Positions 9,369-54,449 of a DNA stretch of 64,000 bases are shown piece by piece. The stretch spans positions 6,498 through 70,497 of the forward strand of contig DATKNL010000012.1 in assembly GCA_035541435.1 (NCBI GenBank), written 5' to 3'. The translations under genes and the position numbers were made by a program. The notes beneath the pieces are model-generated. The model saw only the letters and a program-made list of their open reading frames with translations, was not told the origin of the DNA and did no database searches. The DNA comes from Minisyncoccota bacterium. Lineage in GTDB: Bacteria > Patescibacteriota > Minisyncoccia > UBA6257 > 2-01-FULL-56-20. The stretch's first letter is position 1. The number at the start of each line of letters is the position of its first letter.

Positions 9369-9426
9369 GTCAATGTTTTTTTAATGATTTTTTAACGACT
9401 TTTTTTCAACCGCCCGCCCGAGCGCG

Positions 9427-10674
9427 TCATTCATAGCGCAACGCCTCGATGGGATTGAGCGATGCGGCGCGGCGCGCGGGATAATAGCCGAAGATGATGC
9501 CGATCGCCGCCGACACCCCGAACGCGAGGATGACGTAGGGTACCGAAACGGTCGTCGCGATGCCGGCGAACGAGGAGATGGCGACCGAGGCGATCCATCC
9601 GAGCGCGACGCCCACGAGGCCGCCCGTGAACGTGAGCATCACGGACTCGCCGAGGAACTGCAGCGTGATGTCCCCCTTCTTCGCGCCGATCGCCTTGCGC
9701 AGGCCGATCTCGCGGGTGCGCTCGGTCACCGTCGTGAGCATCATGTTCATGATGCCGATCCCGCCCACGAGGAGCGATATCGCGGCGATGGACGCGAGGA
9801 GCAGGGTGAAGGTGTTCGTCACGCTCGAGGCGGTCGCCACGATGTCGGCCTGGTTGAGGACGGTGAAGTCCGCCTGGCTCCCGCTCGGGATGCCGTGGCG
9901 CTGCATCAGGAGGTCGGTCACGTCGTTCTGCACCTGGGCCATGTCCCCCTGCGACGCCGCCTGGATGTCGACTTCGCTCACATAGGAGGCATCGCCCAGG
10001 AAGTACCGCTGGGCGGTGAGGAGCGGCACGTAGATCACGTTGTCCTGGTTCGAAAAGCCGGTGCCGCCCTTCGAGACGGTGACCCCGATCACCGTGAAAT
10101 TGTCGCCGCCGATGCGGATGGTCTGGCCGATCGCCTGATCCGGCGTGGCCGTCGCGGTGCCGTCCGGGTCGAACAGGTTCTGCAGGACCGTCGGGCCGAT
10201 CACCGCGACCCGGTTCGCTTCGGCGTTGTCGGTGTCGGTGACGAAGGTTCCCGTGTCGACCTGCAGGTTCCTGATCTGCGGATAGCTCGGGGCCGTGCCG
10301 ATCACGCTCGTGTTGGTGTTCGCCCCGCGATAGACGACCTGTTCGCGCGAGGTGACGCTCGGCGCGACCGCCTCGACGTTCGCGACCTGCGAGGCGATGG
10401 CGCCCGCATCGTCGGGGGTGAGCGTGTGCGAGCTGCCGAGACCCGCGCTCACCGTGGTCCCGAACGAGCGCTGCGCGCCCGGCGTCACGATGATAAGGTT
10501 CGATCCGAGCGACTGGATGCTCGCCTGGATCGACGCCTGCGTCCCCTGCCCGATCGACACCATCGCGATCACGGACGCGATGCCGATCACGATGCCGAGC
10601 ATCGTGAGGCCGGACCGCACCTTGTTCACGGTCACCGCGCTGTAGGTCTCCTCGAGAAGGTCCTCGGTCCTCAT
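9427..10674 (-). CDS. ABC transporter permease, MacB/FtsX family
   Basis: 415 aa with an N-terminal TM, a large periplasmic domain and a C-terminal FtsX 3-TM bundle. Confidence 0.85.
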   Translation of the reverse strand: MRTEDLLEETYSAVTVNKVRSGLTMLGIVIGIASVIAMVSIGQGTQASIQASIQSLGSNLIIVTPGAQRSFGTTVSAGLGSSHTLTPDDAGAIASQVANVEAVAPSVTSREQVVYRGANTNTSVIGTAPSYPQIRNLQVDTGTFVTDTDNAEANRVAVIGPTVLQNLFDPDGTATATPDQAIGQTIRIGGDNFTVIGVTVSKGGTGFSNQDNVIYVPLLTAQRYFLGDASYVSEVDIQAASQGDMAQVQNDVTDLLMQRHGIPSGSQADFTVLNQADIVATASSVTNTFTLLLASIAAISLLVGGIGIMNMMLTTVTERTREIGLRKAIGAKKGDITLQFLGESVMLTFTGGLVGVALGWIASVAISSFAGIATTVSVPYVILAFGVSAAIGIIFGYYPARRAASLNPIEALRYE

Positions 10675-30217: not shown

Positions 30218-30303
30218 ATGGGAATTCTACCATGGAGCTGCCGGGCAAAAGAAAAGCCGCTCATAGCGGGCTCGTCCGCTGCTCAGCCTCTTGGCTCACT
30301 CAA

Positions 30304-30777
30304 TCAACGCATCCACGTGCGCCAAATGGGAGCAACGATGGATCCCAAGGCGAAGAGCGAAACCCCGATGACGAGGAGCAGTAGCGCCGCATAAAGCGTC
30401 TTTTTATAATACTTAAAATTTCTTAACGCTTTTATAATTGATTTCACCAATAAAAACTTTGGCTTATCTGGCTGCGGAGGTATTTCCCGCTCCGATAATC
30501 CAATGCTCGAAACCACTGCGGGAGATATTGCGTCCTCTCCTTTTTCATTGCGTGTATTTGACTCGATCCGCGTTAGAAGTTTGGCTATTTGATCTAATCG
30601 TTCGTTGGTCACCTCAAGAGATTCGACAATTTCTGTTATCTTCCAATACCAGGTAATAAATTCCCTGCAAATGAGAAAAACGATTATTGCTATCACAATA
30701 AAAACAAGCAAGGAAGACAACCCGACAGAAGACAATCCCAATATGTTTATCACGGGGTCGGGAACCTGGGGATCCAT
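30304..30777 (-). CDS. Island cassette gene 1: hypothetical 2-TM membrane protein (157 aa)
   Basis: Low-GC ORF preceded by motif box R1 plus a promoter and followed by a terminator at ~30236-30262. Confidence 0.5.
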   Translation of the reverse strand: MDPQVPDPVINILGLSSVGLSSLLVFIVIAIIVFLICREFITWYWKITEIVESLEVTNERLDQIAKLLTRIESNTRNEKGEDAISPAVVSSIGLSEREIPPQPDKPKFLLVKSIIKALRNFKYYKKTLYAALLLLVIGVSLFALGSIVAPIWRTWMR

Positions 30778-30819
30778 AAGATAACTATATCAAAGGCAGG
30801 GTCGGCTTCCTGATCAACC

Positions 30820-30844
30820 GTACTGCGCTGGACGAGCTCAGAGC
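30820..30844 (-). repeat. Cassette box R1 (divergent copy of the att-like motif)
   Basis: gtactgcgctggacgagctcagagc, compared with the consensus agtacgcggcgttggacgagtttagaac. Confidence 0.5.
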
Positions 30845-30856
30845 TCCGTTAGCGCC

Positions 30857-30893
30857 AAAATAAAACATGGCTGCTCCTTTCGGAACAGCCATC
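30857..30893 (-). terminator. Terminator of cassette gene 2
   Basis: ATGGCTG...CAGCCAT stem plus GTTTTATTTTGG on the minus strand. Confidence 0.55.
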
Positions 30894-30980
30894 GATCTGA
30901 AAACTATCTCGGGATCCCGTAGCCCACAAAAGGCAGCGGCCACGAACGGCCTCTTCGCGTCCTCTCCTCCCGTTGATCGG

Positions 30981-31211
30981 TTAGCTTATGACGACGAACT
31001 CGGATGGGTCATAGGAACCTTCCGTGCCATCGTCATGCAGGATGTCATAGCAAAGTCCGTGACAATCATGATGTCTCAGCACCTTCCCGGACATATCCGG
31101 CTTCTTGCTCGCCCATCCTTTCTCGGTCCATTCGTCTCGCATTGCGAGGTTCGGTTGGGTGGTTCTCACTCGCGTGCCCGGATCGATCGGCGGCCATTTT
31201 TCCCGAGTCAT
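30981..31211 (-). CDS. Island cassette gene 2: hypothetical soluble protein (76 aa from ATG 31211; track shows TTG-extended form)
   Basis: GAGGAGGAG SD 7 nt upstream of ATG MTREKWPPID. Confidence 0.5.
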   Translation of the reverse strand: MTREKWPPIDPGTRVRTTQPNLAMRDEWTEKGWASKKPDMSGKVLRHHDCHGLCYDILHDDGTEGSYDPSEFVVIS

Positions 31212-31249
31212 ATTCAACTCCTCCTCTCGTTTCATTGACAACTGACTAT

Positions 31250-31306
31250 GTTATAAATTAATGCATAATTTCTGTCAATTCACGCGGCGCTGGACGAGTT
31301 TAGAAC
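31250..31306 (-). promoter_or_regulatory. Cassette 2 promoter: box R2 (31281-31306) + TTGACA (31278-31273) -17- TATAAC (31255-31250)
   Basis: The minus-strand read is GTTCTAAACTCGTCCAGCGCCGCGTGAATTGACAGAAATTATGCATTAATTTATAAC. Confidence 0.55.
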
Positions 31307-31330
31307 CGATATATTGGCGATGGACGGCGG

Positions 31331-31362
31331 AACAAGAAAGCCGCTCTCGCTGAGAGCGGCTT
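31331..31362 (-). terminator. Terminator of cassette gene 3
   Basis: AGCCGCTCTC-GCTG-AGAGCGGCT, a 10-bp perfect stem. Confidence 0.6.
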
Positions 31363-31377
31363 GGTCCTGACTGATGG

Positions 31378-31893
31378 CTATCGGCTGAGGCCGGCCTGCT
31401 GAGTGACTTCGACGATGGCACCCCTGCCCGATTTTACGAAACGCACATCGCCAGGATCGTCATCGAAAAGGTTCCCGCACGACGCACACCCGGTTCCGAC
31501 GGCCCTCGATGGCATTCTGAGGAACTCCTCCGAAACCGGAACCAGGATGCATCGGGCAAACCCATTCCCGGTCTCTTCGCCATCATACGTGCCAACCCAC
31601 GTCCCATCCGCCTGCTTCGTGAACGCATAGCGAACAACGTCGGGTCGACCATCGTACTTCTTGTTGAATGTCAAAGCGGTTTCGGTCAGGTGGACATCAT
31701 CGACGATCGATTCGCCTAAAGGATCAACGAGCCGCCCGACGAGGATGCCTTCCCCGCAATTGTCGGGGCCTATGACGCCCGAGAACAAGGACCGCACCAA
31801 ACCGTGCAAAAACACTGCGTGAAGGTCCCCGCCGAGAGCGCTGAGACCAAGACTCGGCCGTTCCTGAAAGAAGAATCCCTGGATCAGATACAT
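31378..31893 (-). CDS. Island cassette gene 3: hypothetical protein (172 aa from ATG 31893)
   Basis: AGGAGG 6 nt upstream of ATG MYLIQGFFF. The track ORF extends to 32049, but that part overlaps the promoter and box. Confidence 0.5.
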   Translation of the reverse strand: MYLIQGFFFQERPSLGLSALGGDLHAVFLHGLVRSLFSGVIGPDNCGEGILVGRLVDPLGESIVDDVHLTETALTFNKKYDGRPDVVRYAFTKQADGTWVGTYDGEETGNGFARCILVPVSEEFLRMPSRAVGTGCASCGNLFDDDPGDVRFVKSGRGAIVEVTQQAGLSR

Positions 31894-31921
31894 CTGTCGC
31901 CTCCTACGGTACGCTGCCTGG

Positions 31922-32014
31922 ATCATAGCTGCCGAGCGATTGTCTGTCAAAGCTGCTCGAGCTCGACGAGATGCGATCAGCGAAATAGCGCGCGGCGCTG
32001 GACGAGCTTGGAAC
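31922..32014 (-). promoter_or_regulatory. Cassette 3 promoter: box R3 (31988-32014), TTGACA (31950-31945) -17- TATGAT (31927-31922)
   Basis: Read directly from the sequence: consensus hexamers with 17-bp spacing. Confidence 0.55.
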
Positions 32015-32015
32015 T

Positions 32016-32052
32016 TTGGGAGCGGTGGAAAAATGGAGAAGGCGACCATTTC
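32016..32052 (-). terminator. Terminator of cassette gene 4
   Basis: AAGGCGA-N10-TCGCCTT followed by CTCCATTTTTCC on the minus strand. Confidence 0.5.
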
Positions 32053-32083
32053 TGATCGCCTTACATGTTGCGCTCACCGGTCG

Positions 32084-32779
32084 TCAGAATCCCGCGGGGT
32101 TCTTTACGAGCGCGATGATGTCTTTCAGCGCGTAGTAGTTGGGATTGATGAAATAGCCAGCCGCATCGGTAAGCCCGCGATAAAGATTCATCATTCCGAA
32201 CACGACTGCGACCAGGGGGACGACGACAGTGAAGAATCCTCGCCATCCCTTGTGGGTAGGCAATGGGGGCAAATCAGGGTCAATACTTTTGAAGTTCGGC
32301 TTCTTGGGATCGTTGTCGTCGGGCGACGGCTGCCACCATTTGAGCAACAAGCGACGATAGAGCCATACAAGGAATAGGAACCCGATCGGATTGATGAGTC
32401 CTGTCACGCCTTTCACATATTGCTGCATGACGAGGACTCGCCAAAGCTGAGGAGCTACCTGTTCGATTTTCCCGGCCAAGTAGATCACGGTTTCTTTCGC
32501 CATGTCGAGGCCTTTGTCGAGGGCGTCACCGACCGTCTTGTGTTCGCCGGGTTTCGTGTCTTGAGCCTGGTCGTTTGCGGCTTTCTGAAGAACCTCGAGC
32601 GCTTGTTGGAGCTCTTTCCTTTGCTGTGGATCCTTCAGCCGATCCATGATGCTCGGTCCAGAAGCTTGTTGGGCAGGCGGTGCTGGTGCCTGCGAAGAGT
32701 TCTGCGCAAACGCAGAAACAAAAAGCGTCATCAGCGCCACCAATACCAAAACCTGCGTCGGCTTGCGTGTCATAACCAC
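32084..32779 (-). CDS. Island cassette gene 4: secreted/membrane protein (signal peptide + C-terminal TM, 231 aa)
   Basis: MVMTRKPTQVLVLVALMTLFVSAFAQ signal, Gln/Ala-rich helical region, and two C-terminal hydrophobic segments. Confidence 0.5.
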   Translation of the reverse strand: MVMTRKPTQVLVLVALMTLFVSAFAQNSSQAPAPPAQQASGPSIMDRLKDPQQRKELQQALEVLQKAANDQAQDTKPGEHKTVGDALDKGLDMAKETVIYLAGKIEQVAPQLWRVLVMQQYVKGVTGLINPIGFLFLVWLYRRLLLKWWQPSPDDNDPKKPNFKSIDPDLPPLPTHKGWRGFFTVVVPLVAVVFGMMNLYRGLTDAAGYFINPNYYALKDIIALVKNPAGF

Positions 32780-32809
32780 CTCGTCTTTCGATTTCGAACA
32801 ACTGGCAAT

Positions 32810-32865
32810 GTTATAACATTGCCATTGTAAAATGTCTAGTACGCGGCGTTGGACGAGTTTAGAAC
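32810..32865 (-). promoter_or_regulatory. Cassette 4 promoter: box R4 (32838-32865), TAGACA -17- TATAAC (32815-32810)
   Basis: The minus-strand read is GTTCTAAACTCGTCCAACGCCGCGTACTAGACATTTTACAATGGCAATGTTATAAC. Confidence 0.5.
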
Positions 32866-32873
32866 ATTATTAG

Positions 32874-32901
32874 CGAAAAAAAGTGACCCTTTTGGGATCA
32901 C
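32874..32901 (-). terminator. Terminator of cassette gene 5
   Basis: GTGATCCC-AAAA-GGGTCAC followed by TTTTTTT on the minus strand. Confidence 0.6.
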
Positions 32902-32926
32902 GTTATAGGCACCGACTAAGTTTTTA

Positions 32927-33190
32927 CTAAAGCTCTAAAGAATCGGGAATGTCCTTAAGTATCTCATTGAGAGCTTCGATTTTTTTACGCAACATTGGCT
33001 CAACTTTTTCAATTGTTCTTGGATTTGCATCCGGCCCAAAATTGGTTTCGAGAGCTAGAACAAGAGATTGAGCTTCCCCGACGTCTGCTCCTAATCGAGC
33101 GATAAGCCTGAGATTGTCACGCAATGCGTACAACTTCTCGGGGGTTATTTCTGATTCAACCTGCGGAGATTTGTTTTCGATGCTTTCCAT
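32927..33190 (-). CDS. Island cassette gene 5: small acidic helical protein (87 aa)
   Basis: ORF between a terminator and promoter R5. Confidence 0.45.
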   Translation of the reverse strand: MESIENKSPQVESEITPEKLYALRDNLRLIARLGADVGEAQSLVLALETNFGPDANPRTIEKVEPMLRKKIEALNEILKDIPDSLEL

Positions 33191-33267
33191 GCAAGTCCTT
33201 TTTGTTATGCTCTAAGTGAATCATGCGACCAGACACAATGTCAATCGGCTTTCGATCGGCTGAATAT

Positions 33268-33329
33268 GTTATTACATAATATATTATGTATGTCAACTTT
33301 CAGTACGCGGCGTTGGACGAATTTAGAAC
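33268..33329 (-). promoter_or_regulatory. Cassette 5 promoter: box R5 (33303-33329), TTGACA (33296-33291) -17- AATAAC (33273-33268)
   Basis: It shares TTGACATACATAA with the cassette 6 promoter region. Confidence 0.5.
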
Positions 33330-33331
33330 TG

Positions 33332-33375
33332 CATTGTCGTTAGAAAAATAGAAGAGGCGAATCCTCGTGAGAGAA
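33332..33375 (-). terminator. Terminator of cassette gene 6
   Basis: GAGGCG...CGCCTC hairpin followed by TATTTTTCT on the minus strand. Confidence 0.45.
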
Positions 33376-33409
33376 TCCGCCTCTTGTTGGCTAGTGGGCC
33401 CGGATGAAC

Positions 33410-33730
33410 TTAGGCGTCTGAGGTCGCCTTGCCAGACCTTATGGTTCTCGCCTGTTGAAGGAGAATGAGATGATCTTCGTTCACCTGACCGAGATGGTTG
33501 GCGAGAGCCACGATACCGTTTTCGGCATGTTCTCCCGACAAAGCGATGCCGCCCAGAGTCAGGATTATTAGTTCCAGGACGGGTTCGAACTTGGCCCGAA
33601 AACCCATCTGGACCAAGGGATCCATGGTGGCGATCGCCGTTCTGATTCTCGCGGGAGGCTCCCAAGATATTTTCCCCGCCGATCCCGCGTCAACGATTAT
33701 CGCTCGAGCAGAAGTTGCGTCTTTTTTCAT
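33410..33730 (-). CDS. Island cassette gene 6: hypothetical protein (106 aa)
   Basis: ORF whose upstream region carries TTGACAT fused to the tRNA-Glu 3'-end duplicate. Confidence 0.45.
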   Translation of the reverse strand: MKKDATSARAIIVDAGSAGKISWEPPARIRTAIATMDPLVQMGFRAKFEPVLELIILTLGGIALSGEHAENGIVALANHLGQVNEDHLILLQQARTIRSGKATSDA

Positions 33731-33806
33731 TTACCTTCCTCCGGGCTGAAATCTATTAGTCAAAAACGATCTGAAAGGATATTGTCATATCTATTTATGT
33801 ATGTCA

Positions 33807-33826
33807 AGTACCGCTAACCGGATTTT
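33807..33826 (-). repeat. Direct repeat R6: 20-bp duplicate of the tRNA-Glu 3' end (att-like)
   Basis: agtaccgctaaccggatttt here, versus agtaccgctaaccggatttg at 33993-34012 (19/20 identical). Confidence 0.7.
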
Positions 33827-33929
33827 CACTGCTCGGCAGCTTCGCTGCCTGCGCTTTGAGAACCCTCGGTTCTCAAGACTCTCCGACACGGGAGGGGCAG
33901 ACTGCCCCTCCCGACCCCTCCCCTCGTTC

Positions 33930-33952
33930 AAATCCGGGTCGGTGATAGCGGT
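33930..33952 (+). repeat. Inverted partial copy of tRNA-Glu 3' end
   Basis: aaatccgggtcggtgatagcggt, versus the reverse complement of the repeat aaaatccggttagcggtact. Confidence 0.45.
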
Positions 33953-33994
33953 TGCAAAAGGGATCCATCACAAGATGGATCCCTTTTGCAATAG

Positions 33995-34069
33995 TACCGC
34001 TAACCGGATTTGAACCGGTGTTTTCGCCGTGAGAGGGCGACGTCCTAGACCGGGCTAGACGATAGCGGC
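33995..34069 (-). tRNA. tRNA-Glu (anticodon CUC)
   Basis: Manual fold: acceptor GCCGCTA/TAGCGGT, D stem GTCT/GGAC, anticodon stem TCGCC/GGCGA with loop CTCTCAC, T arm ACCGG-TTCAAAT-CCGGT. It is close to E. coli tRNA-Glu. CCA is not encoded. Confidence 0.8.
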
Positions 34070-38688: not shown

Positions 38689-38715
38689 GTTAGTTCTGCA
38701 CAGAAAGGGGCCTTT

Positions 38716-38744
38716 ATCCCCAGAATTATCCACAACTCCCCACT
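38716..38744 (-). promoter_or_regulatory. Putative MraZ operator: three direct GTGGNNA repeats at 10-bp spacing
   Basis: The minus-strand read is GTGGGGAGTTGTGGATAATTCTGGGGA, just upstream of mraZ. Confidence 0.45.
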
Positions 38745-38906
38745 TCTCTACTACTATATACCACTACGCTCGCCCGTCAAAATACGTTACGGCGCCGCCA
38801 ATTTTTGAACGAAAAAGGCCGTTTTTCGGCCGTTTTTTTAAACTCCCCTCTATTGATATGCACAGCATATGCAATTCAAGCATTCCCCACCGCCCCAAAA
38901 GCCGAA

Positions 38907-39668
38907 ATGCTAGCATTGATGCATCCCCGCATGAGCAGAAAGCTGATCAAATTCTTTCTCATCCTCCTCGCGATCCAGACGCTGATCGCCCTCGTTCTTT
39001 TCCTCTTCTTAACCCCGTACGGCACAGCCGCGCACGGCATCATCGGCATGGGCCTCGGCCTCATCCTGTTCTGGAACGTCATCGGCGGCTACATCCAGTG
39101 GAAGATCCGCGACCGCGTGAAGGCCGCGTGGCAGGCGGTGCGCCTCGACTGGCGGCTCAAGTTCGGCATCCTCGCCACCATCATGGCACTCCTCGAGGAA
39201 ATGGTGACCGTCACGATGACGAACCTCTCCTTCCTCTTCGGCACGACGCCCGCCGTCGCGCATATCACCGTCTCGACGAACTATCTCGACGTCGTCCTCA
39301 CGAACAGCGTGGTCCTCTTCGTGCCGATGTTCTTCATCTGGGCGCTCATCCTCTCGCGCTATGACTTCAGCCCGAACGCCGTCCTGCTCCTCTGGGGCAC
39401 GACGGGAACCCTCATGGAGGCGGGCTATGGCGGCGCGAACCAGGTCATCGGCATCGGAATGTGGATGTTCGTCTATGGCCTCATGATCTACCTTCCCGCC
39501 TATTCGATGCCGTCCGCCGCCGAACGCGGCGCGCTCAGGCAGCCGCGCTGGTGGCATTACGTGCTGTCCGTCTTCGTTCCGCCCATCGTCGGCATCGTGC
39601 CGGGCGGCCTCCTCGGAACGTTTTTCAAATTCATCAGGCCGCCGCATTACCTGCCGGGGGTGAAATAA
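38907..39668 (+). CDS. Polytopic membrane protein of unknown function
   Basis: About 7 TM helices. The start is uncertain (ATG at 38907/38919/38931); the track ORF begins at a TTG at 38805. Confidence 0.5.
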   Translation: MLALMHPRMSRKLIKFFLILLAIQTLIALVLFLFLTPYGTAAHGIIGMGLGLILFWNVIGGYIQWKIRDRVKAAWQAVRLDWRLKFGILATIMALLEEMVTVTMTNLSFLFGTTPAVAHITVSTNYLDVVLTNSVVLFVPMFFIWALILSRYDFSPNAVLLLWGTTGTLMEAGYGGANQVIGIGMWMFVYGLMIYLPAYSMPSAAERGALRQPRWWHYVLSVFVPPIVGIVPGGLLGTFFKFIRPPHYLPGVK

Positions 39669-39815
39669 CGTGGAGGCTTGAACTTCTCGAGTTCGAAGTC
39701 CGCGCTCAACGATTCAAAAAACAATCGTGCTTTTATATTGCGAGGTCCGAGTTTGGATGTGTATAAACTCCTTTTTTTCGACAACGAGTCCGCCATCCTG
39801 TTCCGATATTATCGG

Positions 39816-42569
39816 TTAATTTATATAAGCCTCGTAGAGCACAAACAAAAACTCCAATCGTTCCGCCTCGGAAGCAAACCCCCGCGGCGCGCCATATGCG
39901 GCATCGACCGCTTTGTCGAGACGTTCATGGGCTTCGAGAAGCTGGGACGGCATGACATTGGGATCATAAAGATCAGCCAGCGTTCCCCTGCATTCCTTCC
40001 GCACGTCAAGAAGATTATTTGACGCATCTTCTATGGCATGACGATGTTCCGTGCTAATGCTTTGAGGCCACGGGTAATTATTATAGACCAGTTCATTTGA
40101 ATAACGATATCGAGATTCTAGCCGACCACACACCGCCCTCATCCATGTCATATGCATGAGAGATTGCAAAACTCCGAAGTGATACGGCGTAACATTTGGA
40201 ACGACAATACACGTATCCCCCACGATATATTCTGGCCCAAATAACGAAAGTGGAACGTATTTCCTTCGCTCCGAGCTCACCCTCGGAATGAGAACATATT
40301 CCGTGTCCGGCTGACGGTCTTCTCCGAAAAGGTATGGTTTTCTCGCAAGCCGGCGGGTCGCCTCGCGCTTAGACTGGTCACGATACGTCCGCACCGATTC
40401 GACGCGTTGCATGACGTGCGGCATGGCACGCAACTCCTGCGGGGTGGCGTTTTTTAACCAAAGACAATACCGCGTAGATCCGTTAAGGTATTCCTTGGCG
40501 GACAGCAGTGGTCGAATGAACCTTTCAGCGGCTGGCTCTTCGATTAAAAGACTTTCCTTCTCGGCGTTGTCGTCAAAGAGCAAAAATCCACCATCGTTCG
40601 GCATGCTACCGAATCGCGCTTCGGGGACTTCAGCGATCGGCTTCCTGCGCGGCAATACGACGAGATTGTCGGCATCGACTAAATATGGGTTAATATTCTG
40701 TGCCTGAACAAGATGAGGACTGCCACCGGGATCATCGTAGTCCCATAGTTTCGGCTTCTCCGACCGTTCAAGAGAGAAGCCGATAATGACACAGTGAACA
40801 CCGGCCCGTCCCGGAGCTTCATTCGACCAGCGAAAGGTGCGATGTGCGAAGTTGATGTTGATGCCCTTCCCCAACAACAGCGGCCACAAAATGGCAGCTT
40901 GCTCCCCTTGCGTAATGGAGTTTGTGGAGACAAAAGCAGAACTGATCTTTGTTCCTTGAATGAAGTCGGCCGCTTTGGCATACCACGCCGTTACATAATC
41001 CAGTTCCCCCGCACCGCGGAGATCGCCGAAGATGTTTTGCATTTCGGTTTTCTGCTCGGGGCTTTGATCTTGCTTCGCGATGAACGGAGGGTTCCCAAGG
41101 ATATAGGTGAACGAAGCGCCTTCCGGTGCGAGACGGCTCCAGTCCGTATTCAAGGCATCGCCATGAAAAATGAACGGCTGTTCCTTCAGCGGGAGTTTAG
41201 CAAAATATTCCCCGAACAGATTTCCGAGAATGACGTTCATCTGATGATCGATGAGCCAGAGCGATAGACGAGCGATCTCCGCAGGAAAGGCGAGAATCTC
41301 TATTCCGGAAAGATGTTCAAGTGTCAATTTGGAGATGCTCGAAACATCGATCTTCAAGTTAAGGGGCGTCTGTCCCGATTTGAGTTCTTCTCTATAGAGC
41401 CTTTTAATGATCTCCAATTCAATGAGGCGCAATTCGCGGTACGCAACGACGAGAAAGTTTCCGCATCCGCAGGCAGGATCGAGAAGACGCATTGAGACGA
41501 TCCTGTTCCACAACGCGTTGAGCTTCGATTGATTCTCCCCCGCTTTCTCCAACTCATCTCTTACGTCATCCAAAAACAGTCCATCGATAACTTTCAAAAT
41601 GTTTTTCTCCGACGTATAGTGCGCTCCAAAATCGTGTCTGATATCCTCGTCCTCCACGTCCATGACGAATTGAAACATTGAACCGAAAATCGCGGGCGAG
41701 ACCGAACCCCAGTCGAAACGCGCGGCATTGAGGATTTCCTGCCGCATTTCCTTATTGAAGAACGGAAGCGAGAGCGGGTCTTTGAAGAGCGTCCCATTCA
41801 CATAGGGAAAATCCTTCAGGTCGTCAGACAACGCCTGTTGCCGACGATCCTCCGGCGTGTTCAATACCTGGAAAATAGCCTGCAGATGCCCTCCCAAATC
41901 CTCGCCGTTCTCCTTAGTAAGATAAGCGACGTAATCATGAAAGATGTCGCGTTTCGGGAAAATGCCCGCATCGTCGGCGAAGTAAAGAAAGACGAGGCGA
42001 ACCATGAGTCGCGCGAGCTGTTCTTTTGGATAGTTCCCTTGATAAAGAGCTCGGTAGAGCTGGACCACCACGCGCACCGCTTTTTTGTTGACGGGGTTTT
42101 CCTCCTCGTAATGACGCACTTCATATCCGGCGATGAAGCCGAAGAGGCGGATGTGCGCCGGAAGCTCGGTGAGGCGGAACGTGTGTTCTTCCGCTTTCCC
42201 GTTCTTCCCTTCGAGGTCGTATAATCGCAGATGCTCGAAGTCGGTAACAACAATAAAGCGAGGGCGATTTTCCTCGGCAAGGCTCAAAAAATAATCATTT
42301 GCCTGTAATGTGGCGCTATCGAGACTCTCCCCGCGGGATTTGTGTTCCACCAGAAGCACGCCCGGCCAAAAGAGGTCTATGAAGCCAGTGTTGCCGTTGA
42401 TCTTTTGAATCGCCCGTTGGAATCCTGCGACGGAACGCCGCCTGACTCCGAAGATATCAAAAAAGTCGGTCCAAAAATCTGCATAATCTTGGATCTCGCC
42501 GGTAGATTCCTTGTACTCCTTCGCAAAAGCAGTTGCCCGAGATCGAATCTCGTTCCAACTCAAGGTCAT
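39816..42569 (-). CDS. Type IIL (MmeI-like) restriction-modification enzyme: endonuclease + gamma-class N6-adenine methyltransferase + TRD in one chain
   Basis: 917 aa from MTLSWNEIRSRATAFAKEYK (MmeI-type N-terminus), LDPACGCGNFLV (SAM motif I), GNPPF (motif IV). The track's N-terminal extension is a read-through of tRNA-Val. GC is ~50% against ~65% background. Confidence 0.8.
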   Translation of the reverse strand: MTLSWNEIRSRATAFAKEYKESTGEIQDYADFWTDFFDIFGVRRRSVAGFQRAIQKINGNTGFIDLFWPGVLLVEHKSRGESLDSATLQANDYFLSLAEENRPRFIVVTDFEHLRLYDLEGKNGKAEEHTFRLTELPAHIRLFGFIAGYEVRHYEEENPVNKKAVRVVVQLYRALYQGNYPKEQLARLMVRLVFLYFADDAGIFPKRDIFHDYVAYLTKENGEDLGGHLQAIFQVLNTPEDRRQQALSDDLKDFPYVNGTLFKDPLSLPFFNKEMRQEILNAARFDWGSVSPAIFGSMFQFVMDVEDEDIRHDFGAHYTSEKNILKVIDGLFLDDVRDELEKAGENQSKLNALWNRIVSMRLLDPACGCGNFLVVAYRELRLIELEIIKRLYREELKSGQTPLNLKIDVSSISKLTLEHLSGIEILAFPAEIARLSLWLIDHQMNVILGNLFGEYFAKLPLKEQPFIFHGDALNTDWSRLAPEGASFTYILGNPPFIAKQDQSPEQKTEMQNIFGDLRGAGELDYVTAWYAKAADFIQGTKISSAFVSTNSITQGEQAAILWPLLLGKGININFAHRTFRWSNEAPGRAGVHCVIIGFSLERSEKPKLWDYDDPGGSPHLVQAQNINPYLVDADNLVVLPRRKPIAEVPEARFGSMPNDGGFLLFDDNAEKESLLIEEPAAERFIRPLLSAKEYLNGSTRYCLWLKNATPQELRAMPHVMQRVESVRTYRDQSKREATRRLARKPYLFGEDRQPDTEYVLIPRVSSERRKYVPLSLFGPEYIVGDTCIVVPNVTPYHFGVLQSLMHMTWMRAVCGRLESRYRYSNELVYNNYPWPQSISTEHRHAIEDASNNLLDVRKECRGTLADLYDPNVMPSQLLEAHERLDKAVDAAYGAPRGFASEAERLEFLFVLYEAYIN

Positions 42570-42613
42570 ATCGTCAATGCTACCTCCGGACTGTGGAAAT
42601 TGCCATCTACGTG

Positions 42614-42686
42614 TGGGCGTTGCAGGGATCGGACCTGCGACCTCTCCGATGTGAACGGAGCGCTCTAACCACTGAGCTAAACGCCC
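42614..42686 (-). tRNA. tRNA-Val (anticodon CAC)
   Basis: GGGCGTT-TA-GCTCAGTGGTTAGAGC-G-CTCCG-TTCACAT-CGGAG-AGGTC-GCAGGTCCGATCCCTGC-AACGCCC-A. Confidence 0.8.
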
Positions 42687-52628: not shown

Positions 52629-53369
52629 TCAGGCCGGGTGACAGATCAGGATGTCTTCCCGTCCGGCCCGCAGCTCGAACGAATAGTCCGGACAGATCTT
52701 CGTTATGAGCGCCGGGAGTTCCATTTTGTCGTTCGGCTTATGATAGGCGGACATGACCATGATCGGCTTCCATTTCTTGATTGTCTCGCTTGCGCCCTCA
52801 AGGATGTTCGCCTCGTATCCTTCGGCGTCTATCTTAAGGAAGTCGACGCGGGTGTTCAGGTTGTCGATTTTCTGCAGATGCACCGGCGTGCCGCTCGTGT
52901 CGATGTGGTTGCTGAGGCAATCCCCCGTCTCTTTTATGAACGCATCCTGCTCCTTGTCACTCAAGCCGTTGTTCACGACGGTCACGTTGGGATAGCCCCT
53001 GACGTTTTCCGCGAGCGCGGCGAAGGTCGAGGGGGTGGGCTCGAAGGCGATGACGGTCGCGCCCGGGCGCTTGGCGGCCACGAGCGACGCGAATATGCCC
53101 ATGTTCGCGCCGGCATCAAGGACGACATCCTTGTCACCGATCATCTCGATGCGATACTGGTTCGAGATGATGATCTCGTCGACGGTCCCCAGGAATCCGT
53201 TGACCTGGTCCGCGAGGACCCTGAAAGGCCTGCCGAAAAGGGTCGTGACGAATTCCCCCTTCGGACGAAGGGATGACGGGAGCACGAAAAGGACCATGAC
53301 CCTGAGGGGAATCTTGCCGCTCAAAAAGCAGGAAATCGCCGTGAGGCGGATGCGGATCGGATAGCTCAT
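52629..53369 (-). CDS. FkbM-family methyltransferase
   Basis: DAGANMGIFASLVAAKRPGATVIAFEPTPSTF. Confidence 0.75.
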   Translation of the reverse strand: MSYPIRIRLTAISCFLSGKIPLRVMVLFVLPSSLRPKGEFVTTLFGRPFRVLADQVNGFLGTVDEIIISNQYRIEMIGDKDVVLDAGANMGIFASLVAAKRPGATVIAFEPTPSTFAALAENVRGYPNVTVVNNGLSDKEQDAFIKETGDCLSNHIDTSGTPVHLQKIDNLNTRVDFLKIDAEGYEANILEGASETIKKWKPIMVMSAYHKPNDKMELPALITKICPDYSFELRAGREDILICHPA

Positions 53370-53501: not shown

Positions 53502-54449
53502 CTATACCCTCTCCTTATTCAAAATGCTAGCGAAATACGCGATCGTCTTCCTCAGCCCCTCCTCGAGCGAAACCTTCGGCTCCCACCCGAGTTTTTCCTT
53601 CGCAAGGCTGATGTCGGGTTTTCGCTGGCGCGGATCGTCGGTCGGCAGCGGACGCTGTTCGATCGCGCTTTTCGAGCCGGTCAGCGCGATGACCTTCTGT
53701 GCGAACTCCCTCACCGTGAATTCCCCGGGGTTGCCGATGTTCACGGGACCGACGAACCCCGTCGATTCCATCATGGCGGTCATGCCATCCAGCAGGTCCG
53801 AGACGTATTGGAAGCTGCGCGTCTGGCTGCCGTCGCCGTATATGGTGATCGGCTCCCCCTTCAGGGCCTGGATGATGAAATTGGACACGACGCGGCCGTC
53901 GTCGGGCGACATGTAGGGGCCATAGGTGTTGAAGATGCGGACGATGCGGACGTCGACGCCGTGCATGCGGTGATATTCCATGAACACGGTCTCGGCGGCG
54001 CGCTTGCCCTCGTCATAGCACGCGCGCGGCCCGAGCATGGTCACGTTGCCGCGATAGGACTCTTTCTGCGGATGCTCCAGCGGATCGCCGTATACTTCGG
54101 ACGTCGACGCCTGAAGCACGCGGGCGCCGCACCGCCGGGCGAAGTCGAGCACGTTCACGGACCCCTCGACGTTCGTGCGCATCGTCTTCACCGGATCCTT
54201 CTGGTACCACGGCGGCGACGCCGGGCAGGCAAGATTATAGATGCGGTCGAACTTCTCGCCGAGGTCGAACCGCTCCGTCACGTCGTGCTCGACGGCGTGA
54301 AAGCGCGGATCGCCGGCAAAGCGCTCGACGTTCGCGCGCGGGCCCGAAAAGAAATTGTCGAGGGCCCAGACCTCGTGGCCGGCGGCGAGCAGCCGCTCGG
54401 CAAGATTGGTCCCGATGAATCCCGCGCCGCCGGTGATGAGGATTTTCAT
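53502..54449 (-). CDS. UDP-glucuronate decarboxylase (UXS, short-chain dehydratase/epimerase family)
   Basis: [16 protein letters not shown], YxxxK, and UXS-like length and motifs. Confidence 0.8.

Follow-up and report, generated by a model that had tools for sequence, protein, structure and literature searches.

The genomes of Patescibacteria are tiny, and the ways in which they acquire genes are poorly understood. In streptococci, the cis-mobilizable elements (CIMEs) are kilobase-sized, decayed and integrase-less derivatives of integrative and conjugative or integrative and mobilizable elements, which are flanked by attachment (att) sites and located at protein-gene or tRNA sites, and in integrons the recombination sites are as a rule folded. 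Among the tRNA-targeting islands, the tycheposons of Prochlorococcus contain partial tRNAs, which were described as remnants of older integrations (10.1101/2020.12.28.424599). Here, a 166-bp segment behind a tRNA-Glu gene was analyzed in a 64,000-nucleotide stretch of a Minisyncoccota bacterium (assembly GCA_035541435.1, contig DATKNL010000012.1, positions 6,498 to 70,497), and this whole stretch is called the window. The segment is a full copy of a conserved, folded insertion of small size, which encodes no protein and lies behind tRNA genes in several distant Patescibacteria.

DNA inserted behind tRNA-Glu

The genome is rich in GC (about 65%). Relatives, labelled Paceibacterota or Patescibacteria and named here by L numbers, were found by a genome scan with MurF, and the neighbourhood of the adjacent Mur-ligase gene was compared. 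The insertion target, a tRNA-Glu(CTC) gene, was located on the minus strand at 33994..34069 (ARAGORN; Rfam RF00005, 60.4 bits), with the lower coordinate at 33994 or 33995 and the upper one at 34069 in the two programs. It was intact and had the same sequence as in the empty-site relatives L034 and L036. In L034-L037, four contigs of one relative with 75% protein identity, tRNA-Glu was identical over all 76 bases and the ATG of tpiA followed 28 nt after it, with no hairpin between them (L034 and L036). The site was empty in L032, L038 and L052 as well. Between tRNA-Glu and tpiA, the window contained low-GC DNA of about 3.75 kb (30247-33992). Since the site was empty in relatives with an identical tRNA-Glu, the DNA of about 30247-33992 was inserted, and the segment at its tRNA end is not the native trailer. 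The initial annotation had left room for a native trailer and terminator shared by all island-free relatives; this was ruled out by the empty sites, as the island-free relatives were without the segment. Different DNA was found at the tRNA-Glu site in L001, L030, L040 and L042, which therefore indicated an insertion hot spot in the clade.

The insertion was accompanied by an exact duplication of the tRNA 3' end. The 19-mer AGTACCGCTAACCGGATTT had exactly two exact occurrences, at 33807-33825 and 33993-34011, and no third copy was present at up to 3 mismatches (0.00 expected in shuffles). As annotated before, two near-identical 20-mers, which differ at the last base only, enclose 166 bp (33827-33992). 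In tRNA numbering, the repeat extends from T-loop position 57 to the discriminator (73), followed by the trailer bases CT. The copy at 33993..34011 on the minus strand (AAATCCGGTTAGCGGTACT), designated direct repeat 1 (DR1), completes the functional tRNA with positions 57-73 and 2 trailer nt. DR2 (33807..33825, minus strand), in which tRNA 57-73 plus CT is exactly repeated, is attR-like and was read as the displaced original tRNA 3' end. The inverted partial copy that had been annotated between them was real, and its position at 33930-33952 was slightly off: it consisted of GTTCAAATCCGG at 33926-37 (12 nt exact) and TAGCGGT at 33947-53, two pieces separated by 9 extra bases (GTCGGTGA or TCGGTGA, by gap placement).

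Homologous copies and the conserved fold

Copies in other genomes were first found by searching each relative's own tRNA-Glu 3' end, and in L003 and L008 the same pattern was observed, an inverted T-loop fragment followed by a direct 3'-end copy about 185 nt downstream. The three tRNA-Glu trailers (window, L003 and L008) aligned over their full length, and a covariance model was built from them. This model detected the copies after tRNA-Glu in L003 (12318-12472, 149.5 bits) and L008 (11402-11543, 134 bits), the copy of the window (33951-33804, 120.8 bits) and a further copy directly after tRNA-Thr(GGT) in L003 (2552-2706, 83.9 bits). The E-values of the homologues ranged from 1e-23 to 1e-44, which are rough for home-made models. 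The segment was thus present at another tRNA locus, as had been proposed for a check. Searches of more than 50 loci and of the remaining window by two models, also with filters off, gave no further copies.

The unit had a size of about 166-170 bp, with its parts in constant order. Read in the orientation of the tRNA, it started with P0 (33952..33991, minus strand), a perfect 18-bp hairpin directly after the tRNA with an A-tract before and a T-tract after it, found by inverted-repeat search and alignment. A hairpin at this position was present in all four copies with a sequence that was not conserved, and none was seen at the empty site of L034; with its A/T-flanked stem, P0 looks like a bidirectional terminator. 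The anti-T motif (33926..33953, minus strand) followed as the 5' strand of the closing helix and matched the local T-loop in all four copies. In the window, its part CCGGATTTGAAC (33937..33926, minus strand) is the reverse complement of tRNA 53-64, and ACCGCTA (33953..33947) complements the acceptor 3' strand too, which applied to the window copy only. According to the alignments, a conserved G-rich junction, GAGGGGWGGG (33914..33925, minus strand), lies between the closing helix and the hairpin P1 (33889..33913, minus strand; CGGGAGGGGCAG and CTGCCCCTCCCG), which was conserved with compensatory changes. The hairpin P2 (33856..33876, minus strand; TTGAGAACC GAG GGTTCTCAA) showed double compensatory changes at three consecutive positions, from G-C/A-U/G-C to A-U/G-C/A-U. 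In P3 (33835..33849, minus strand; GGCAGC GAA GCTGCC), the stem differed in every copy and the loop was NAA in 3/4. The conserved right end, also drawn from the alignments, comprised GCAGTGA and the 3' strand of the closing helix (33818..33832, minus strand; GTGAAAATCCGG) and ran into DR2. The anti-T motif pairs with the right end and the start of DR2, a tandem G.A included.

The stems of the window copy were 33835-40/33844-49, 33856-64/33868-76 (9 bp), 33889-900/33902-13 (12 bp) and 33952-69/33974-91 (18 bp). All three hairpins of the initial annotation were therefore present, while the stem on the tRNA side was a perfect one of 18 bp instead of 14, and a fourth hairpin (33835-49) had been overlooked. 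Folding, which had been suggested as a check, gave a strong structure: the minus strand at 33800-33995 reached -103.2 kcal/mol (z = -7.7 versus shuffles). The claim that no open reading frame (ORF) lies between the repeats was nearly right, apart from a mechanical 70-aa ORF (33801-34013, plus strand), which overlaps the tRNA and is supported by nothing. A small ORF in the segment body was rejected as well, for the reading frames were not conserved between copies.

The copies followed their local tRNA in both the inverted and the direct part. The anti-T motif was CCGGATTTGAAC in the window (local T-loop TTCAAAT), GGATTCGAAC after tRNA-Glu in L003 (TTCGAAT), GGAGAATCGAAC in L008 (TTCGATT) and GGGAGTCGAAC after tRNA-Thr in L003 (TTCGACT), and its two variable loop positions (57 and 59) fitted the local tRNA in 4/4 copies. 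The match reached into the T-stem (12/13) only in the window and L008. DR2 corresponded to the local tRNA from position 57, the left boundary of the flanking repeat in each copy, to 2-5 nt past its end, with matches of 19/19 in the window, 21/22 after tRNA-Glu and 17/19 after tRNA-Thr in L003, and it was decayed in L008. The spacing from DR1 to DR2 was measured as 186 nt in the window and 190 nt after tRNA-Glu in L003, and estimated as about 191 nt after tRNA-Thr in L003 and about 183 nt in L008. Both L003 copies contained an extra hairpin (four besides the closing helix, versus three elsewhere), and the right end GCAGTGA was replaced by GACGTAA in L008.

Compensatory changes were then quantified in the model alignment, in which 97.2% of the cells were standard pairs. 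Both sides had changed in 9/28 pairs, compared with 2.6 +/- 1.3 in column shuffles (0/500 reached 9), and slid-partner controls gave 0-2 doubly changed pairs. The structure is under selection according to this covariation, for which the evidence is good and not overwhelming because only four sequences were available. The tRNA strand had a GUAA (GNRA) loop in L003 and three G.U pairs versus no A.C pairs, and its minimum free energies were 5-6 kcal/mol lower; the z-scores were no better than those of the other strand. A convergent transcript on the other strand would be suited by the bidirectional-terminator look of P0, and no convincing promoter for the body was found on either strand by sequence reading and a consensus scan. 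In the search of Rfam 15 families only the tRNA passed, with the next best match at E >= 0.011 and far below the gathering thresholds. A second tRNA, a tRNA pseudogene and a tmRNA were rejected, as ARAGORN and Rfam found the true tRNA only and nothing in the segment was tRNA-like beyond fragments of the T-arm and the acceptor 3' strand. Features of the hammerhead, the tmRNA 5' end, signal recognition particle RNA and the T-box were compared by hand and gave nothing consistent. As a side observation, the G-rich stretch at 33902-33925 on the minus strand (junction plus P1 5' arm; GGGGAGGGGTCGGGAGGGG) has four G-runs and fits a G-quadruplex motif, and the single CCCCTCCC arm could pair with either of two G-rich stretches in this region; only a partial version of these G-runs was seen in the other three copies.

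The bodies of the copies were 52-68% identical between genomes (51-76% in the context of the first-half comparison), which implies an old age for the copies of different genomes. In the same genomes, the DNA identity of murF was 64-70% and that of the tRNA itself 75-83%. In L003, the two copies shared 93% identity over their first half and 64% over their second, and the former value suggested exchange or copying inside one genome. Despite a body divergence of 30-50%, the anti-T motif, and DR2 where intact, still matched the local tRNA. This preserved match fits an element that is still cycling, in which selection on tRNA function acts on each of the two tRNA-end copies, and it fits a functional need for matching too; it does not fit a neutral scar.

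Possible origins of the segment

We tentatively favour the explanation that the segment is a non-autonomous, miniature integrative element, which recombines in the T-loop by an enzyme encoded elsewhere. The element would have entered tRNA-Glu(CTC) by site-specific recombination in the T-loop at the 56/57 boundary and brought its own block of tRNA 57-73(+n), which would now complete the tRNA as DR1, and its own terminator hairpin would have been placed after the restored tRNA. The old tRNA 3' end would have been pushed away as DR2 (33807-33825), so that the downstream DNA would retain its former upstream context. The closing helix would be formed by the T-loop/T-stem-complementary motif and the conserved GUGA with the start of DR2, and the folded body, either as DNA or once transcribed, would be recognised by the recombinase. 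On this mechanism, the junction of the excised chromosome is predicted to join CCGGTTAGCGGTACT to TGACATACATAA, and that of the circle to run from GAGCAGTGA through AAATCCGGTTAGCGGTACT into ATTGCAAAAGGG. In this mechanism, the recombination chemistry, the identity of the original copy, the trans-acting enzyme and the action of the fold as RNA or DNA are inferred. As Williams reportedly set out in 2002, such a repeat layout is expected for elements crossing over in the tRNA T-loop. The earlier suggestions of a scar, a MITE-like insert (miniature inverted-repeat transposable element) or a structured non-coding RNA (ncRNA) were thus borne out as to a small non-autonomous insert and a structured element, and given up as to a random scar and a classical MITE. 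A random scar was unsupported because the unit of about 166-170 bp recurs in L003 and L008 with the same order of parts and with compensatory changes.

Several observations weigh against an integrative element. The family consists of four distinct copies in three genomes, which is a small number, and its divergence resembles that of murF, so that long vertical descent is as compatible as mobility. No pair of filled and empty sites was found among close strains, since L027, L028 and L047-L049 were identical to the references. The left end is conserved as structure only, which is odd for a recombinase substrate, and at the right junction GTGA would face GTTC of the tRNA T-loop, a heterology if the 7-nt T-loop is the overlap. 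No partner enzyme is known: the gene tables of the 64-kb window contained no Pfam domain of an integrase, transposase, reverse transcriptase or TnpB-like protein, none of these was found near the L003 and L008 copies, and the element itself, 166 bp without a gene, holds no integrase gene. BLAST of the segment against phages and plasmids gave no match, and the core patterns had 0 matches in viral contigs. Nine 16-mer matches in viral contigs were rejected as coding sequence scoring at most 12 bits with the covariance model. The 19-mer was also considered as a phage attP, and this was rejected since its one viral-contig match was in a structural-gene ORF without tRNA or integrase and was taken as chance. 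A 20-nt exact match to the DR2 version AAAATCCGGTTAGCGGTACT was seen at L029 4464-4483 (IMG/VR UViG_3300031227_001856), inside a 263-aa ORF of a phage-like contig without tRNA, and it is probably due to chance considering the size of the collection.

Part of the evidence could also be explained by a structured ncRNA gene linked to the tRNA, inherited vertically and co-transcribed with the tRNA or convergent to it, an explanation we consider rather unlikely. Its tail would mimic the 3' strand of the acceptor and T-arm of the neighbouring tRNA, and the 5' motif would have to pair with this tail. In many lineages, a deletion between the 19-nt repeats would have removed the gene, which would also have been copied once to tRNA-Thr. 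The compensatory changes in P1-P3 and the closing helix are what such a gene predicts, as are the GNRA (GUAA) loop in L003, the few G.U and no A.C pairs on the tRNA strand, and a divergence between genomes that parallels that of the hosts; the continued match of DR2 and the anti-T motif to the local tRNA over a body diverged by 30-50% suggests constraint instead of a decaying scar. However, the repeat runs 2-5 nt past the mature tRNA end, which fits a duplication of DNA and not tRNA mimicry, and the strong terminator-shaped hairpin stands between the tRNA promoter and the body, for which a separate promoter would find no space on that strand. The opposite strand showed no convincing promoter either, and no Rfam family matched. 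The tRNA-Thr copy with its Thr-type tail requires a mobility step regardless.

The small chance that the segment is a decayed att arm with the displaced tRNA end of a larger tRNA-integrated element, whose integrase and cargo were deleted, was given still less weight. The same arm would have been left independently, or inherited, in several lineages, as a counterpart of the partial tRNAs that are dispersed in tRNA-linked islands. This agrees with a direct tRNA 3'-end repeat that adjoins a 3.6-kb foreign block, with the larger islands with inverted or partial tRNA fragments at other tRNA-Glu loci of the clade (L030) and with the older-integration remnants in tycheposons (10.1101/2020.12.28.424599). 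Random deletions, however, would not end in one and the same stretch of 166-170 bp, with its parts in the same order, in three distant genomes and behind two tRNAs. Moreover, att arms are DNA bound by proteins, in which compensatory maintenance of hairpins is not expected, and no full-length carrier was found in any locus, viral contig, phage or plasmid. It is very improbable that the anti-T motif (10-12 nt) serves as a guide which chooses the tRNA T-arm target by pairing, with the 19-22-nt repeat as a long target duplication. This would explain why the inverted and the direct parts both match the local tRNA, Glu or Thr, and it would mean a protein-less, nucleic-acid-guided mobile element in very small genomes, relying on an enzyme still to be identified. 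Chance or low complexity, in which a hairpin-rich native trailer merely resembles a tRNA end, has virtually no probability left. Short matches such as GTTCAAATCCGG were indeed also found at tRNA-Thr because T-arm sequences are alike among tRNAs, but chance is refuted by the 19/19 identity (0.00 expected), the empty sites and the E-values of the homologues.

Of the insertions that follow tRNA genes in the window, this segment is the only part with counterparts in distant genomes. As a minimal recombination substrate, it would be a landing pad through which small units of promoter, gene and terminator enter, and it would hint at a recombinase still to be discovered; as an RNA whose sequence is bound to that of the neighbouring tRNA, it would represent a new class of tRNA-linked RNA. 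The covariance model and the defined anatomy are now available for searching.

Neighbouring units, other tRNA loci and known systems

The segment is neighboured by an unrelated 106-aa ORF and tRNA-Glu. A sigma-70-like promoter of the next gene was recognised by sequence reading (33779..33807, minus strand), with TTGACA (33807..33802), a 17-nt spacer and CAATAT (33784..33779); TTGACA starts on the last base of DR2, and the promoter was not listed by a consensus promoter scan. Immediately after DR2, -35/-10 elements with a 17-nt spacer were likewise found in L008 (TTGACG/TATAAT) and after tRNA-Glu in L003 (TTGTAG/GATAAT), each followed by a small ORF. The ORFs after DR2 in these three copies (106, 114 and 121 aa) had no mutual homology and belonged to no family. 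The tRNA-Thr copy of L003 was followed by the terminator of a convergent gene and no cargo gene, and therefore the unit exists without cargo.

In the window, DR2 is followed by a low-GC block (about 50%; 30247..33806, minus strand), which was absent from relatives and consisted of six small promoter-ORF-terminator units with the D1 repeat between them. Their ORFs, all on the minus strand, had 106, 87, 187/231, 171, 84/86 and 157 aa and no family, and searches of the cassette proteins in Pfam, PHROG and NCBIfam gave essentially nothing. Each unit had a promoter-like start (TTGACA-17-TAnnAn) and a terminator at its end. The D1 repeat (24-28 nt, GTTCTAAACTCGTCCAGCGCCGCG(TACT)) adjoined the next -35 element, with copies at 30817-61, 31279-323, 31987-2031, 32838-82 and 33302-46. 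DR2 stood in the place of D1 before the first unit, with a common GTACT end and the following TGACATACATAA. In an exact-pattern scan of a metagenome collection, D1 was found in the same organism only.

DNA behind tRNA genes was observed at other sites as well. In L030, the insert after tRNA-Glu (9397-9500) contained an inverted T-arm (GGGGAATCGAAC), and an inverted, almost complete copy of the tRNA 3' end (TTCGATTTCCCCCTGGAACTAC) stood ahead of an island with genes for HigB, an M78 peptidase, a P4 cII-like protein and an IS256-type transposase. The insert of about 200 nt after tRNA-Glu in L040 (11409-11610) began with a long hairpin, followed by GGAATCGAAC, and had neither the conserved body nor DR2. 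In the window, a low-GC block (about 50%; 38689-42612) lay directly 3' of tRNA-Val (42613-42686) and carried a 917-aa MmeI-family restriction-modification gene (39816-42569, minus strand) and a 253-aa unknown ORF; mraZ was within about 200 nt after tRNA-Val in the relatives L032 and L034, and a repeat of the tRNA-Val end was not found. An epimerase gene (53502-54449) lay between tRNA-Thr(TGT) and tRNA-Thr(GGT), a gap of 38-78 nt in L034 and L003, and a Methyltransf_21 gene (52629-53369) lay between tRNA-Thr(GGT) and rpmG, which are adjacent in L040. In total, 4/5 tRNA genes of the window preceded DNA that was absent at that place in relatives. An uncalled tRNA-like 3' fragment (GGTTCCGGGTTTAAATCCCGGGGATGGCTCC, T-arm plus acceptor strand) was noticed between two tRNA-Thr genes of L003 (2365-2442), which could be a tRNA in decay or one more att remnant.

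The P4-type islands and tycheposons (10.1101/2020.12.28.424599) resembled the locus in the insertion at the 3' part of a tRNA, the restored tRNA and the partial copy at the far end, and in a recurrent hot spot where older material is pushed away from the tRNA. The restored tRNA, the 19/19 direct repeat and the empty site in relatives are those of a tyrosine-integrase-type element. Unlike these islands, the segment has 166 bp without an integrase or any gene, and a unit of the same size was found in distant genomes with a maintained multi-hairpin fold and an inverted T-loop motif. With CIMEs it shares the boundary of att-type repeats and the lack of its own recombinase, so that it would be moved in trans, whereas it is a conserved 166-bp structured unit with no known partner element. 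Like MITEs, the segment is small, non-coding, non-autonomous, foldable and present or absent among relatives. In contrast to MITEs, it has no terminal inverted repeats, with a variable hairpin on the left and GCAGTGA on the right, and the only inverted pair in the segment is internal, formed by the anti-T motif and the DR2 side. Its insertion was strictly site-specific and gave a 19-22-bp duplication of the tRNA end instead of a 2-10-bp target duplication, and the flanking repeats (19 and 22 nt) ended at differing distances past the tRNA.

A structured non-coding body of about 130-170 nt and a 10-12-nt segment complementary to the insertion target are shared with group II introns (exon- and intron-binding sites), IS110 bridge RNA and the omega RNAs of TnpB and IscB, and flank-derived sequence after the body is shared with TnpB right-end RNAs. 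The segment differs in that no reverse transcriptase, DEDD recombinase or TnpB/IscB gene was adjacent or in the window, that a long direct repeat is not a feature of these systems and that no Rfam match was obtained. As in integrons, the segment heads an array of small unrelated gene units on the same strand with a conserved repeat between them. An integron reading of the D1 array was rejected, for there was no IntI, and the GTTRRRY/RYYYAAC (R''/R') boxes were missing from the D1 repeat and the 166-bp unit. Each unit also had its own promoter and terminator, and D1 was a simple site of 24-28 nt and not a long imperfect palindrome. Taken together, the segment may be filed as an att-bounded, non-autonomous integrative element, far smaller than tycheposons and CIMEs and with a conserved fold.

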